The notes beneath the pieces were generated by a model. It ran no database searches and was not told the DNA's origin. It saw only the letters and a list, made by a program, of their open reading frames with translations. A stretch of DNA of 42,237 nt, taken from the IMG/VR virus record IMGVR_UViG_2880361019_000002, positions 1-42,237 of that record. One strand, written 5' to 3'. The position numbers were made by a program, and so were the translations under genes. Each line of letters starts with the position of its first letter. Within the stretch, counting starts at the first letter, position 1. Below, piece after piece: positions 17,662 through 21,556 of the stretch. The DNA comes from a virus. Taxonomy: Duplodnaviria; Heunggongvirae; Uroviricota; Caudoviricetes.

Positions 17662-19515
17662 TTATGATGATGCCGGTGCATTTATCTCCAGCACCAGACT
17701 TTCTATCTCAACGCCATACGCTGCATTTTTTGTAACATCCGTCAGCGTCAGCGCATTCAACCCCAGTGTCAGACTGTCTTTTATGACCTGGAATGCCGGG
17801 CCAGCCACTCCATTCAGTTTCGGAGTAACCGTGGCACTGCCGGCGGTGAACACCAGCTCCAGCGTCTGCCAGTCGTTACCGTAATCGCCGAACTCCCCCA
17901 GCTTCGTGTTTCCGGCTTTCCTGTGATGCATCAGATTCACTCTGCCGTCAGTGGTCTGAGTGAAGTACGACATCAGGAACGGATTACCGGTACCCGTCAT
18001 CGCCACACCATCAGGAACGGGAGCATCCGTATACAGATAAATCCCCAGCCCGAACTGATTGTTGGTCAGTGCGCCTGACAGGCGGAACTTACAGGTCAGT
18101 CTGCCGCCCTGTGTCAGCAGGGTAATTGCGTCATCCACCGGATGCGTCAGGGACCAGGTTTTATTGCTCTGCTTGGCAATCTTAAATACACCATCTGACA
18201 ACTGAATTCCGCCATCCTTAATGCTCCAGCCCTGCGCAGCAGCCTCTCCGGCTGCCGGCAGCAGGGAGATTGTGCGAACGGACGTATCTGCAGACGGACC
18301 CGATGGCGTGTTGCCGCCGGGCGAGGGTTTGATTTCCGGTGCCTTACCACTGATGAAGGCTGAGGTGCGCCCGGCTGCGTTCAGAATAGCGGTTGCCAGA
18401 CGATCCGGAATAATGCTCCTGCGCGCCCATGAACTGAAATGTGTCGGGCGGTTTGATGATACCTGGTTTCCATTCGTTCTCGATGCCGCACCGTAATATC
18501 CTGATGCCGGAATATCCGGATCTTCTGCCGGCGCGTTAGTGGCGGTATTGACGCCGTTACCGTCTGTCATGAAGGGCACAAAATAAACGCCCTCACTCTC
18601 CCTGTTTTTATACCCGCCGTACACGGTGTCGTACTGGGTAGCGTATGTATTTTTCCAGTAATACGTCGTGTCACCACAAATCCACGGCACATCTGCAGCA
18701 CTGCCACCATGGCACTGCGCGTTAAACACGGAGAGGTCAGCACGAAACTGTGTCAGCATGGCTGTAAACAGCGCAGGTTGCTGTGCGTGGGTGGCGGCGC
18801 TCATGTCAAACTCACCCTGCATCCAGCAGACGGCCAGCAGAACGTTTTTGGGATTTTTCTGCAATGCCGCTTTTGTGCGGGAAATCAGATCCTGATATAA
18901 CGGCTTGCCCACCCCCCAGCGTGCCGAATCCTGACTGGCCCCCGTGGACTCGCTGAATGTCCCCTCCGCGCCCTGGGTAAATGCCGAACCACCACGACAG
19001 CATGGTACCAGCAGGATCCCCGCGTTATTCGGGATATACGGGAGCAGTTTTTTGGCAATATGTAAACCCTGGCCGACACAGCCGTACTGCCCTTTGCTCA
19101 GGTCAGCCCTCGGATGATTCAGCGTACTCATATCCTGCACATCATGCAGACAGTGGTCAGCCGGAATAATATCGTTATATCTGCAGGCAGCCCCGCCCGG
19201 CGTCACTGTACTGCGGCGCGCCAGCTGTTTAATGCGCGGATCCGGAGCATCGTATGAATCCGGCAGCGGAAGCCCTTCACAGTAAGCCATGGCATTGGAC
19301 TGCCCGGCCAGTACGATGACGTAGTACCAATCCGGCTCAGATGAAGGGCCGACCTGTGGCTCTCCTTCAATAGCCACCGCCTGCATCAGTGTGTACGGCG
19401 TAATGGCAACCGGTCCTCCGTATGGCTGCCAGCCCTCTTTCAGTTTGTGTGTCAGCTTTTCCGCAAGGTCTGACGGCGACGCCGCCCTGACAACATCATA
19501 ATGTTTAATCGACAT
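17662..19515 (-). CDS. nanS-p: Prophage-encoded sialate O-acetylesterase (NanS-p-like)
   Basis: 617-aa ORF; DUF1737-like N-terminus then SGNH esterase signature ([14 protein letters not shown]); position between tRNA region and lysis genes as in Stx phages. Confidence 0.75.
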
Positions 19516-19595
19516 CGAATTTCTCCCGTGTACAGGAACAGAGTTAAAAAGCCGGAATCAAATCGCAGGATGAACATCTGCCAGTGGCTGGTCGT

Positions 19596-19622
19596 AAAAA
19601 AAAGGCCGCGCCATGCGCAGCC
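19596..19622 (-). terminator. Intrinsic terminator upstream of nanS-p
   Basis: Minus strand reads GGCTGCGC-ATG-GCGCGGCC followed by TTTTTTTT (8-bp stem incl. one G-U, 8 U). Confidence 0.6.
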
Positions 19623-19837
19623 GGAAATAAAGGGATAACGATGATAGTTTGAGAAAAACAGAAATAACACTTTTGTGGCAAAGCATGGTGCCGGGTGCCT
19701 CCCGGTGAATTCAGCCGGTGTCACTGAACCCGCGTCGGCTTGCCTATAACATAATAAATGCTACCCACACCAGTCGCCCCTCCGCACAGGGGGATTCACC
19801 ATGCAGAAGTGTTTTTAATAAACAGCAAACAAAAAAA

Positions 19838-20005
19838 TCAAGCATTATGCAGGCTGTTTCTTTTTATCACCGGCCACAGCAATACCACAATGCCGCAGAC
19901 CAGCACCCCATCCGCCAGCACCGACATGATTCTGCTGGTGAAATCCACCATCACCACCAGAAACAGCAGGAGTGCAGCCACAGCCAGGCGCAGTTTTACC
20001 GTCAC
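19838..20005 (-). CDS. Small predicted membrane protein (about 55 aa), translationally coupled to upstream gene
   Basis: GTG start overlapping the TGA of the 20002-20463 ORF (GTGA), GGAGAA RBS; two hydrophobic segments (LRLAVAALLLFLVV, VLADGVLVCGIVVLLWPVI); not in ORF track (short). Confidence 0.35.
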   Translation of the reverse strand: MTVKLRLAVAALLLFLVVMVDFTSRIMSVLADGVLVCGIVVLLWPVIKRNSLHNA

Positions 20006-20463
20006 AGGTGATTCTCCAGACGAAGACCCAGAACACCGGCAATCTCTTCCAGCACCTTACACTCTTCCGGCTCAATTTCGCCTTCGGCCTCCGCAATGGC
20101 CACCGCCACATCCAGCACATCTTCCGCTTCACGCGTATCGTGTTTCACATCCTCGATCTCACGTAACGCCGCACGACGACCAATTTTAAAGTTCGTATCC
20201 AGCTGACCGATAATGGTTGCGCTCATCGCATTAATTTCTGACGTAAACGCGGACAGCGCTGGCTGATTACGCAGTACCTGTTCGATCTTCGCTTTCTCGG
20301 AAGCCTCACATTCACCATCTGCACAGGCCACCAGGTATGCGGCGTTAATCACCGCCTGTGCCAGATCGCGTTTTTCAAACTTTTTAATTTCCGTTGCCGC
20401 TCTGCGGGCTTTTTTTACCAAAAATACCAAACATCGTGACGTTCCTTTGGGTGGGTGAGCCAA
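20002..20463 (-). CDS. TerB-like (tellurite-resistance TerB domain) protein, possibly frameshifted at its 5-prime end
   Basis: A/E-rich helical protein with AADGE-type motif; a well-formed N-terminus MFGIFGKK sits in another frame across a 7-nt A run (plus-strand T7 at about 20410-20420). Confidence 0.45.
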   Translation of the reverse strand: MAHPPKGTSRCLVFLVKKARRAATEIKKFEKRDLAQAVINAAYLVACADGECEASEKAKIEQVLRNQPALSAFTSEINAMSATIIGQLDTNFKIGRRAALREIEDVKHDTREAEDVLDVAVAIAEAEGEIEPEECKVLEEIAGVLGLRLENHL

Positions 20464-20600
20464 CGCCCGGGAGCGATCTGCCCACAGAGAAAGTCACACT
20501 GACCACTCCGTAAGCTCCCCCCCGAAAGGCTCTGTGGTTGGTATGCGCCGGGCGTGGCGCGGATACAAAAAAGGTCCGCAAAAGCGAGCGAAAATAAGTG

Positions 20601-20678
20601 TGGTGCGTTGTACTGGGTTCGAACCAGTGACCGATTGCTTAGAAGGCTGGCGTTCTATCCCGATGAGCTAATGGCGGT
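20601..20678 (-). tRNA. tRNA-Arg(UCU)-like sequence, probably defective/chimeric
   Basis: Perfect T-arm (ACTGG-TTCGAAC-CCAGT), CCA end, loop CTTCTAA, but 5-prime acceptor and anticodon-stem strands do not pair with their 3-prime partners. Confidence 0.4.
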
Positions 20679-20754
20679 TGGTGGCCCTTGCTGGATTTGA
20701 ACCAGCGACCTGGCGATTATGAGTCGCTCGCTCTCACCACTGAGCTAAAGGGCC
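20679..20754 (-). tRNA. ileZ: tRNA-Ile2 (anticodon CAU, lysidine type) / tRNA-Met-like
   Basis: 76-nt sequence GGCCCTTTAGCTCAGTGGTGAGAGCGAGCGACTCATAATCGCCAGGTCGCTGGTTCAAATCCAGCAAGGGCCACCA folds as canonical cloverleaf with CAU anticodon. Confidence 0.8.
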
Positions 20755-20978
20755 GAGCGTAGGATGATAACGTTACGAAATCAATGTTGCAAGAGTTCAC
20801 AAATTCACTGATTCAAAATTATTCTTGTAAAAAATCTTTTAACGTCAGGCACAAAGAGCCTGTACATAGATTTGTGTAATTGCCTGATTTTGATATGTTC
20901 AATCCAGCATCAAATGAAGGTTAATTTATGGACGAAAAACAGTTACAGGCTCTAATGACCTTTATACGATTGACCCAA

Positions 20979-21024
20979 ATAAAAAAAGCCACCGTTGCAA
21001 CTTAAGAGTCACTAACGGCAGCTT
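20979..21024 (-). terminator. Candidate intrinsic terminator just downstream of Q (possible short late-promoter leader terminator)
   Basis: Minus strand GCTGCCGTT...AACGGTGGC imperfect stem with about 17-nt loop followed by TTTTTTT; a perfect TTGACA -35 hexamer lies about 30 nt upstream (plus 21056-21061). Confidence 0.35.
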
Positions 21025-21067
21025 ATGCGAATAGTGTTGCTCATTTGCTCAACGATGTCAACACGTT

Positions 21068-21556
21068 CTATGCTACATGTTTAATTTTCTCTACACGTTT
21101 CCGGTTTTTAAACGCACTATCCAGAATCGGGTAAATCATAAACAACGAGGCATTGAGGATTTCGTCAACTTCCCGTCGACAGGTTGCTAGCGATGGTTTT
21201 TGAATGCGCCCGCCGCCCCGGCATAACATCTTGCGAGGTCTTGCGACGCTATGATAGTAAGATGCAATGGCGTGCTTGGAAGAGCCGTGGGCGTAGTAGC
21301 TGAGGAGGATGCCAAAGGCTTTCTTGTCAATGTACATGACGGAATCGACGACCTGAGAAATCAACATTCCATCATCATCATTACACATTGGCCTTGTCAT
21401 AACTCTTCCCGGCTCCACGCTCTCCATGAATTTAGCTATTACGCTGCTCATGCGCTTTTCCAGACGACCTGAATAAACCCATGCGCCCCACAGTTCAAGC
21501 CAGCCATTCAGCCACTCATGCTGTTCTTTGGTGAGGTTTAGTTCTCTTATGCCCAC
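21068..21556 (-). CDS. Q: Late-gene antiterminator Q
   Basis: 162-aa ORF with the [12 protein letters not shown] motif; located immediately upstream of tRNA/lysis region as in lambdoid phages. Confidence 0.6.

Follow-up and report, generated by a model that had tools for sequence, protein, structure and literature searches.

The DNA analyzed here is a stretch of 42,237 nucleotides (nt), hereafter the window, from the Caudoviricetes record IMGVR_UViG_2880361019_000002. It is part of CP034212.1 of the human isolate Escherichia albertii 2010C-3449, where the late region lies at ~828-842 kb, and this strain is listed with stx 'None' (PMC10673567). We propose, with a probability of roughly 0.8, that the window represents an stx-negative, defective and mosaic lambdoid prophage assembled from the module pool of Shiga toxin (Stx) phages, in which the Stx-type cargo slot carries the gene pair tciA-tciB (tciAB). 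The late-region layout of Q, promoter pR' and terminator tR', tRNAs, cargo, the esterase gene nanS-p and lysis genes is present, and its flanks are colinear with those of the Stx phages 2851, 933W and H-19B. Analysis with Pfam, Rfam and ARAGORN confirmed the gene order and coordinates given in a preliminary description of this DNA (Q, tRNA-Ile2, TerB, NanS-p and lysis genes). That description was right about the layout, but overlooked an open reading frame (ORF) of the DUF3927 family and an RNA element of the STnc100 family. Its view that the toxin slot is empty does not hold, as the slot spans 796 nt and contains both tciA (TerB) and tciB (DUF3927).

The borders of the slot were defined by blastn against phages 2851, 933W and H-19B, the non-Stx prophage of EDL933, JLK-2012 and phage 434; all features of the late region described here lie on the minus strand. 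On the left, window positions 22300-20637 match 2851 at 99.6% identity, ending 41 nt into the tRNA gene argN, and positions 20671-20556 correspond to argO plus 52 nt of 2851 and 933W. On the right, homology to 2851, 933W and H-19B resumes at 19818-19822, the start of the STnc100-like element, ~90 nt past stxB. According to Rfam searches, an element of this family immediately follows stxB in the Stx phages 933W, H-19B and 2851; in the EDL933 non-Stx prophage, JLK-2012 and the window, the gene that it immediately follows is tciB. The slot can be delimited as the interval from a weak terminator-like hairpin with a T-run behind argO (20565..20592; scan, ΔG -5.4, z -1.95) to the predicted STnc100/PasD-family structured RNA (19647..19833; RF02076, 115.4 bits with a gathering score of 47), occupied by stxAB in Stx phages and by tciAB here. 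The element of 933W that matches the left hairpin is annotated as 'possible rho-independent terminator upstream of the stx genes'. The 796 nt are counted from the end of a hybrid tRNA (20601) to the start of the STnc100 core (19804); between the shared flanks the cargo measures 738 bp of tciAB in the window versus 1,375 bp of stx2cAB in 2851.

The two cargo genes have the layout of a prophage moron, in which a TerB ORF and, overlapping its end, a DUF3927 ORF are placed between the tRNA cluster and STnc100/nanS-p. The first, tciA (20002..20434), encodes a predicted TerB-domain protein (PF05099, 49.2 bits; phrog_632 'tellurite resistance', 219 bits), and the second, tciB (19838..20005), a predicted 55-residue DUF3927 membrane protein (PF13064, 62.3 bits; phrog_1470 'TciB-like'); both phrog_632 and phrog_1470 are 'moron' families of PHROG. 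The pair occupies the matching position in the EDL933 non-Stx prophage, JLK-2012, the prophage of the atypical enteropathogenic Escherichia coli (aEPEC) strain E110019 and 23 IMG/VR loci. Moreover, 80% or more of window positions 19500-21100 is present in at least 565 of 5,426 complete E. coli genomes, with the tRNA, TerB, DUF3927 and esterase genes annotated.

To place the window among its relatives, we sampled from IMG/VR the 80 best-matching prophage loci out of at least 599 matches; the NanS-p encoded by these 80 is at least 91% identical to that of the window. The content of the slot upstream of nanS-p was classified by tblastn, ARAGORN and the STnc100 core motif in the 53 loci that have the left anchor on the contig. 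In 23 of these 53 the slot holds tciA and tciB, with 796-802 nt from argO to the STnc100 core, or 1394-1452 nt where extra DNA is present; it is empty in 15, with 104-138 nt over the same distance. Seven loci carry tciB only, in a 434-like manner, two carry stx1 and six have other content. In the empty loci, which contain neither stx nor tciAB, the T-run of the terminator leads straight into AAATGTCTCACAATTCAG...TTGAC...GCATGGTG, which is the STnc100-like leader. Such prophages (for example, IMG/VR loci L030, L032, L035 and L080) share with the window the NanS-p lineage (at least 91% at the amino acid level) and the order of tRNAs, post-argO terminator, STnc100-like element and nanS-p, but have nothing between the T-run and the STnc100 leader, where the window has its two genes. 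Judged from these loci, tciAB appears to be the commonest non-toxin cargo of this phage group. A slot with stxAB followed by tciAB was seen in none of the 80 loci and six references. Because the examined Stx phages lack tciAB and the empty loci lack both pairs, stxAB and tciAB can be regarded as mutually exclusive occupants of one interval. We found no earlier description of an explicit series of empty, tciAB and stx slots.

Comparison of the slot borders also showed that the first ~20 nt past the post-argO terminator (window 20556-20600, compared with L001 4088-4139 and with L032) are alike in stx2 and tciAB cassettes, with the pattern (A/G)TATC(T/C)GCGCC..., and are absent from empty slots. 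This suggests either that the stx2 and tciAB cassettes share their left end or that the empty slots arose by deletion. A common ancestry of the stx2A and tciA leaders was considered and rejected: near the start codons only the 8-mer AAAGGAAC is alike, a similarity reached by 14 of 2000 shuffles, and its function in ribosome binding can explain it.

Two other explanations of the missing toxin genes are contradicted by these comparisons. In the first, stxAB was simply excised from an Stx phage and the slot was left empty. The prophage is indeed decaying, with IS1, IS21 and IS66 insertions and an 11.3-kb deletion associated with IS1, and 90 bp have been lost within its tRNA cluster. However, that loss concerns tRNA sequence only and lies upstream of the left border of the slot, real empty slots are far shorter (104-138 nt, as above), and the interval holds two Pfam-supported genes found at the same position with the same flanks in hundreds of genomes. 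Nor is there an stx fragment in the window: tblastn with Stx2cA and Stx2cB against its whole length gave chance matches only (best E 0.11-0.54), and blastn at word size 7 with the whole stx slot of 2851 matched only the 52 nt after argO. Excision is, in our judgment, very improbable. The statement in the preliminary description that no stx-like ORF is present was thus borne out by both tblastn and blastn, and the defining trait of an Stx-converting phage, stxA plus stxB downstream of Q, is absent from the window. Of the two origins proposed there, the 'stx-negative relative' agrees with our data, but loss of the toxin genes is left without support, given the lack of any stx fragment, the colinearity with non-Stx prophages and the position of the scar away from the cargo.

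In the second explanation, which was implicit in the preliminary description, TerB and DUF3927 belong to the late-operon backbone, stx normally lies upstream of them, and a gap of ~140 bp between the tRNA-like gene and the TerB ORF is the true empty toxin site. TerB was listed there as a backbone gene, and it is frequent near such loci (Zhu et al. 2026, 10.64898/2026.05.13.724894). Against this, 2851, 933W and H-19B have neither tciA nor tciB between stxB and STnc100/nanS-p, with the STnc100-like element already ~75-90 nt past stxB, and the empty-slot loci are devoid of tciAB as well as of stx. This explanation is hardly tenable. The gap itself was given correctly for the longest ORF (TTG at 20463), but amounts to 166 nt when measured to the ATG at 20434.

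The kinship with Stx phages is most evident in the Q module. The late antiterminator Q (21068..21556; PF06530, 87.5 bits) is the same at 162 of 162 residues as that of the Stx2c phage 2851. Over the 572 nt of Q, pR' and tR', the window agrees at 99.7% with the Stx2c phages 2851, Nil2 and phi313/99 and the Stx2a phages WGPS4/6, and aligns at 98.8% without indels to phage 21, which identifies the Q21 allele. The late promoter pR' (21026..21061), whose positions were carried over along this indel-free alignment from the curated record of phage 21 and whose sequence was read directly, has its -35 element TTGACA at 21061-21056, the -10 element at 21038-21033 and the start site at 21026. The Q-binding elements GTTGAGCA/AATGAGCA lie at 21053-21038; the downstream element (QBEd, AATGAGCA) is the same as in phage 21, and the upstream one (QBEu) is one base off. 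The intrinsic terminator tR' (20977..21024), a hairpin followed by U7, lies where phage 21 and Nil2 have an annotated terminator, and its fold (ΔG -20.2 kcal/mol, z -4.55) was matched by none of 200 shuffles. Together, these elements presumably function as a Q21-type late antitermination module. Upstream, the gene of a predicted NinI/PphA-type serine/threonine phosphatase (21547..22218; PF00149 Metallophos, E 1.1e-16), the last of the nin region, overlaps the start of Q and belongs to the 99.6% block in common with 2851. The Q and 572-nt identities, together with a tRNA-Ile2 that matches ileZ of 933W and 2851 at 76 of 76 positions, support the preliminary assignment of an 'Stx-phage-type late region'.

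Phage 2851 and its relatives (Nil2, Stx2a_WGPS4/6 and F349) share with the window the stretch of ninG, ninI, Q, pR', tR', tRNA-Ile and the first 41 nt of argN at 99.4-99.6%, and 2851 also has the same order of Q, tRNAs, slot, STnc100-like RNA, nanS-p-type esterase and lysis genes. It differs in having intact argN and argO and stx2cAB in the slot, compared to a fusion and tciAB in the window; in addition, its nanS-p region is only ~69% identical, and its integrase and immunity regions are unlike those of the window. Over 51-68% of its length, the early half of the window (21001-42237) reaches ~98% identity with JLK-2012, a non-Stx phage, as well as with AU6Stx1 and BP-4795 (Stx1) and with 933W.

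These relationships raise the possibility that a 2851-like Stx2 ancestor recombined homologously with a resident non-Stx prophage, in the tRNA cluster and in late genes further downstream, trading its segment from argO through stx to nanS-p for the argO-tciAB-nanS-p segment of that prophage, so that the toxin was lost by substitution. Consistent with such an exchange, the block from ninG through Q to tRNA-Ile (20637-22571) agrees with 2851 at 99.4-99.6%, all sequence to the right of this block has its best match (96%) in a non-Stx prophage, the affinity switches within ~30 nt of the argN/argO fusion, and the early region is ~98% identical to both Stx1 and Stx2 phages. However, the Q21 block is found at 97-99% identity also in phage 21, SfI, JEP4 and JLK-2012, phages that never carried stx, and therefore a close match to 2851 need not mean that an ancestor carried stx. 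Beyond the 1.9-kb block, identity between the window and 2851 drops to 91-98%. Moreover, the combination of Q21, hybrid tRNA and tciAB already exists in E110019 and ~17 other genomes, and therefore any exchange must be old and could have run either way. Altogether, we consider a toxin lost by substitution unlikely, though still worth weighing, and favor an stx-negative mosaic that drew on the same pool of modules.

A close relative over the late region is the E110019 prophage next to mlrA/yehV, which is 98.5% colinear over 17659-22571, including the hybrid tRNA, and whose integrase is 98.8% identical to that of the window; the attachment site lies outside the window. The window departs from E110019 in carrying an additional IS1 within ninG, in lacking 4 bp behind the hybrid tRNA and in having lost 11.3 kb of the morphogenesis region. 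The EDL933 non-Stx prophage (NZ_CP120944, 2.42 Mb) carries the same cargo and is 96% identical from argO through nanS-p, and JLK-2012, a phage from O55:H7, has the same cargo, a Q identical at 159 of 162 residues and an early region of ~98% identity. Both differ from the window in having another Q or other tRNAs and intact Arg tRNAs. Phage 21 (OL657228) is alike in Q, pR', Q-binding elements and tR' (98.8%) and in the lysis type with S21 pinholin, signal-anchor-release (SAR) endolysin and spanins. In phage 21, however, the tRNAs (Asn and Thr) are followed directly by S21, without a cargo slot, an STnc100-like element or nanS-p. The preliminary description had named two findings that would speak against its reading of an Stx-phage-type late region with an empty toxin slot. 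One, that phages with this Q never carry stx at this position, is not the case, as 2851-type phages carry stx there. The other, colinearity with a non-Stx lambdoid family, is present, as the values for E110019 (98.5%) and EDL933 (96%) demonstrate.

The junction between the two affinities falls within the tRNA cluster. Its first gene, a tRNA-Ile2 (CAU) of the ileZ type (20679..20754; ARAGORN, Rfam 72.5 bits), is apparently intact, and its homologue in E110019 is annotated as tRNA-Ile by the Prokaryotic Genome Annotation Pipeline (PGAP). A promoter-like site TTGCAA-17-TATCAT (20764..20792), suggested by a consensus scan, sits just upstream, at the position of the putative promoter pT of 933W, which is annotated 10 nt upstream of ileZ. 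The second gene is a pseudo-tRNA (20601..20677). Alignment with 2851, EDL933 and E110019, together with the blastn breakpoints, revealed that nt 1-30 of argN are joined in register to nt 31-77 of argO, with exactly 90 bp lost; the join is the sequence GCCTTC common to both anticodon loops. In the chimera only three of the seven acceptor-stem positions are paired, its Rfam score of 19.7 bits is below the gathering score of 29, and ARAGORN made no call for it in the window or in E110019, compared to calls for argN and argO in 2851, 933W and EDL933. The preliminary 'Arg-like tRNA' is accordingly not a regular tRNA gene but this chimera, which is predicted to be non-functional, the fusion having probably destroyed both Arg tRNAs. 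Of the Ile-CAU, Arg-UCG and Arg-UCU trio of Stx-type phages, only ileZ is intact in the window. The deletion scar that the preliminary description had suggested looking for does exist, then, as this 90-bp fusion, but it lies inside the tRNA cluster and not at the borders of the cargo.

Only 21 complete E. coli genomes, E110019 among them, contain the chimera as a one-piece match, compared to ~1,380 others with an intact Ile-Arg-Arg cluster. Inspection of informative sites showed that the switch from 2851-like (99.6%) to non-Stx, tciAB-lineage-like sequence (96%) occurs no more than 24-30 nt into argN, shortly before the fusion point is reached, and therefore the chimera would have arisen on the tciAB side. 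Because three of the 21 genomes link the chimera to a different Q and tR', it travels with the tciAB side, and since then Q modules and cargo modules appear to have been recombined repeatedly through the tRNA cluster as their joint. A single unequal crossover between a 2851-like phage and a tciAB phage was rejected as the simplest reading of its origin, as the last informative sites of the argN half already belong to the tciAB lineage and the chimera occurs with other Q types too. We found no earlier description of an argN/argO fusion, and a literature search with the names argN, argO and ileZ gave no matches.

We next consider whether the cargo genes are expressed. The tciB gene starts with a GTG that overlaps the tciA stop codon (GTGA), and tciA has a well-placed Shine-Dalgarno sequence and an ATG at 20434. 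However, a run of seven A residues (A7, 20410-20416) sets this ATG out of frame, and the ATG frame ends after 16 codons, whereas the TerB frame opens at a TTG at 20430, 4 nt downstream of the ATG, which is the start chosen by PGAP in E110019 and EDL933. The window, E110019 and EDL933 all have A7, and JLK-2012 has A6 with an intact ATG ORF; among the IMG/VR loci matching the pattern, 11 have A7 and five have A6. This polymorphism could reflect decay, a shift of the start codon or a slippage switch. A consensus scan found no sigma-70 promoter between the tRNA terminator and tciA. The simplest route to tciAB expression would be read-through, either from pR' in a Q-dependent manner or from the promoter-like site at 20792-20764 upstream of the tRNAs.

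By analogy with the phage 21 and 933W paradigms, we propose that Q would load onto RNA polymerase at pR' and its Q-binding elements, and that the modified polymerase would pass tR' and the weak terminator behind the tRNAs. The transcript would then run in order through the tRNA cluster, the cargo slot, the STnc100/PasD-like RNA, nanS-p, the pinholin/SAR-endolysin/spanin cassette and the morphogenesis genes. Within the slot, tciA, encoding a soluble TerB-domain protein, and tciB, encoding a membrane protein, would form a translationally coupled pair. Exchange of cargo would proceed through homologous recombination between conserved flanking sequences, namely the tRNA cluster to the left and STnc100/nanS-p to the right, and an in-register recombination at GCCTTC would have fused argN to argO; this order of events is one that we infer. 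A bolder version, in which tciA-tciB is a functional late-expressed payload competing with stxAB for one transcriptional niche, in which the TerB protein and its small membrane partner possibly modulate envelope stress, lysis timing or superinfection, and in which A6/A7 variation at codons 7-9 toggles translation, is speculative and in our view doubtful. PADLOC returned nothing for tciA, tciB, NanS-p or a 590-residue ORF of the nin region, and NCBIfam gave a sub-threshold DjlA match for TciA only. The names tciA and tciB are both used in the JLK-2012 record, and the phage 434 record names tciB and carries tciB only.

The decay of the prophage is evident at several sites. At 22572-23339, ~350 bp upstream of ninI-Q, ninG is split by a complete IS1 of 768 bp that has a 9-bp target duplication and was found at this site in none of the 5,426 complete E. 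coli genomes of the collection. Through a truncated IS1 end (11391-11717), the first 149 codons of terL (11996-12445) are connected to what is left of the tape-measure gene, its C-terminal end (10789-11346). The ~11.3 kb that E110019 and 2851 have here in addition comprises the remainder of terL, most of the tape-measure gene and the genes for the capsid, portal, head-tail and major tail proteins. In addition, an IS21-family element (istA/istB ORFs, 4672-6974) lies between two fragments of the tail-tip gene J, an IS66-family element with three ORFs (609-2944) abuts and partly overlaps the 3' end of J, and a further transposase fragment is located at 1-426. With these losses the prophage is predicted to be defective and unable to make particles. 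Its modules are 96-99.7% identical to sequences of E. coli O157, aEPEC and Stx phages, and therefore a recent exchange between E. albertii and E. coli is indicated.

Several points weigh against the interpretation of the window as a mosaic whose Stx-type slot carries tciAB as its cargo. The data fit either direction of evolution, and an stx ancestor could have swapped its cargo without a trace. Expression of tciA may be abnormal here, as A7 breaks the ATG frame, and the cargo could itself be decaying. We only infer the Q-dependent transcription of tciAB, and the IS1 in ninG could block Q expression in this copy altogether. No experimental function of prophage tciA or tciB was found in the literature searched, in which papers on tciA concern P1-like phage-plasmids. 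Finally, the IMG/VR sample is skewed to NanS-p alleles near that of the window, with Stx2 phages under-represented.

The STnc100-like element at the right border keeps the conserved core (GCAUGGUGAAUCCCCCUGUGCGGAGGGGCGACUGG ... CACCGGGAGGCACCCGGCACCAUGC) with its core helices matched, but lacks the 3' hairpin of the Rfam model (positions ~165-195). Its score is 115 bits, whereas the elements of Stx phages reach 159-208 bits (comparison with L001, L005 and L007). These features are consistent with a predicted RNA of the STnc100/PasD family. AsxR, which lies beside the element in 933W, is absent in the window. According to a recent preprint, prophages of this kind carry STnc100/PasD beside the esterase gene and have TerB close to PasA/PasC (Zhu et al., 10.64898/2026.05.13.724894). 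Between the element and nanS-p, scanning and folding revealed an intrinsic-terminator-like hairpin of eight pairs, seven of them GC, followed by U8 (19596..19622).

The esterase gene nanS-p (17662..19515) is a full-length ORF encoding a predicted sialate O-acetylesterase of 617 residues, with three Pfam domains above threshold (DUF1737, SASA and DUF6645) and an end-to-end match to phrog_143. Its DNA is 95.6% identical to the homologue of the Stx1 phage H-19B, and the block 20671-17650 that includes it is 96.0% identical to the EDL933 non-Stx prophage. This gene family is known from both Stx and non-Stx prophages (PMC8065619, PMC10462455). The segment between nanS-p and the S21 holin (17513-17661) contains a strong terminator-type hairpin (GAGCCAUCAGUAGUUAACUGGUGGCUUUUUU). 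In enteropathogenic E. coli E2348/69, the same preprint places the small RNA PasA between the esterase and holin genes (10.64898/2026.05.13.724894), and by analogy a PasA-like small RNA may be encoded here.

The downstream lysis set is of the phage 21 type, as judged by matches to PF04971, PF00959 and PF03245 and by a lipobox, and comprises S21 holin, lysozyme and Rz/Rz1. It starts with a class II holin (17297..17512; pinholin S21, 71-residue form; PF04971, 112 bits), followed by a DUF1327/YdfR-family protein between holin and endolysin (16948..17292; PF07041, 152.6 bits). The phage lysozyme (16364..16897; PF00959, 86 bits) has an Ala/Gly-rich N-terminal segment, recognized by eye, that would make it an endolysin of the SAR type, as in R21. 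An antirepressor-like ORF with a KilAC domain (15395..16090; PF03374, 98.9 bits) separates the endolysin from Rz, the same place at which 933W has ant. The i-spanin Rz (14699..15184; PF03245, 169.7 bits) contains the embedded o-spanin Rz1 (14761-14946) with the lipobox LVVSAC. At the DNA level, the lysis block is 94.7% identical to that of H-19B, whose R is annotated as 'similar to bacteriophage 21 R'.

Further features were observed outside the late region. The 590-residue ORF mentioned above (24681-26453) lies on the plus strand, opposite to the nin region around it, with a GC content of ~33%; it matches phrog_9230, a family of unknown function, from end to end, and gave no match in Pfam, NCBIfam or PADLOC. 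It is preceded by an (AAATAG)x5.8 tandem repeat at 24330-24364 and adjoined by an HNH/AP2 endonuclease ORF at 23569-24216. In the early-left operon, Rfam identified the cIII thermoregulator Lambda_thermo at 35905-35963 on the plus strand (88.5 bits), consistent with a lambda-like cIII.

The arrangement described here is already known, in that PGAP annotates it in hundreds of genomes and tciA and tciB have been named before, and stx-negative lambdoid prophages made from Stx-phage modules are well documented (PMC8065619). The argN/argO fusion and the slot series are small refinements of this picture. The fusion, carried by ~0.4% of complete E. coli genomes, provides a compact lineage marker. The position of stx is best treated as a bounded slot with at least four states, namely stx, tciAB, tciB plus other genes, and empty, which prevents prophages with tciAB from being read as 'toxin-deleted'. 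As a Q21 allele the same as that of Stx2c phages occurs in an stx-negative E. albertii, typing by polymerase chain reaction of Q21 or of the tRNA flank is no proxy for the presence of an Stx phage.

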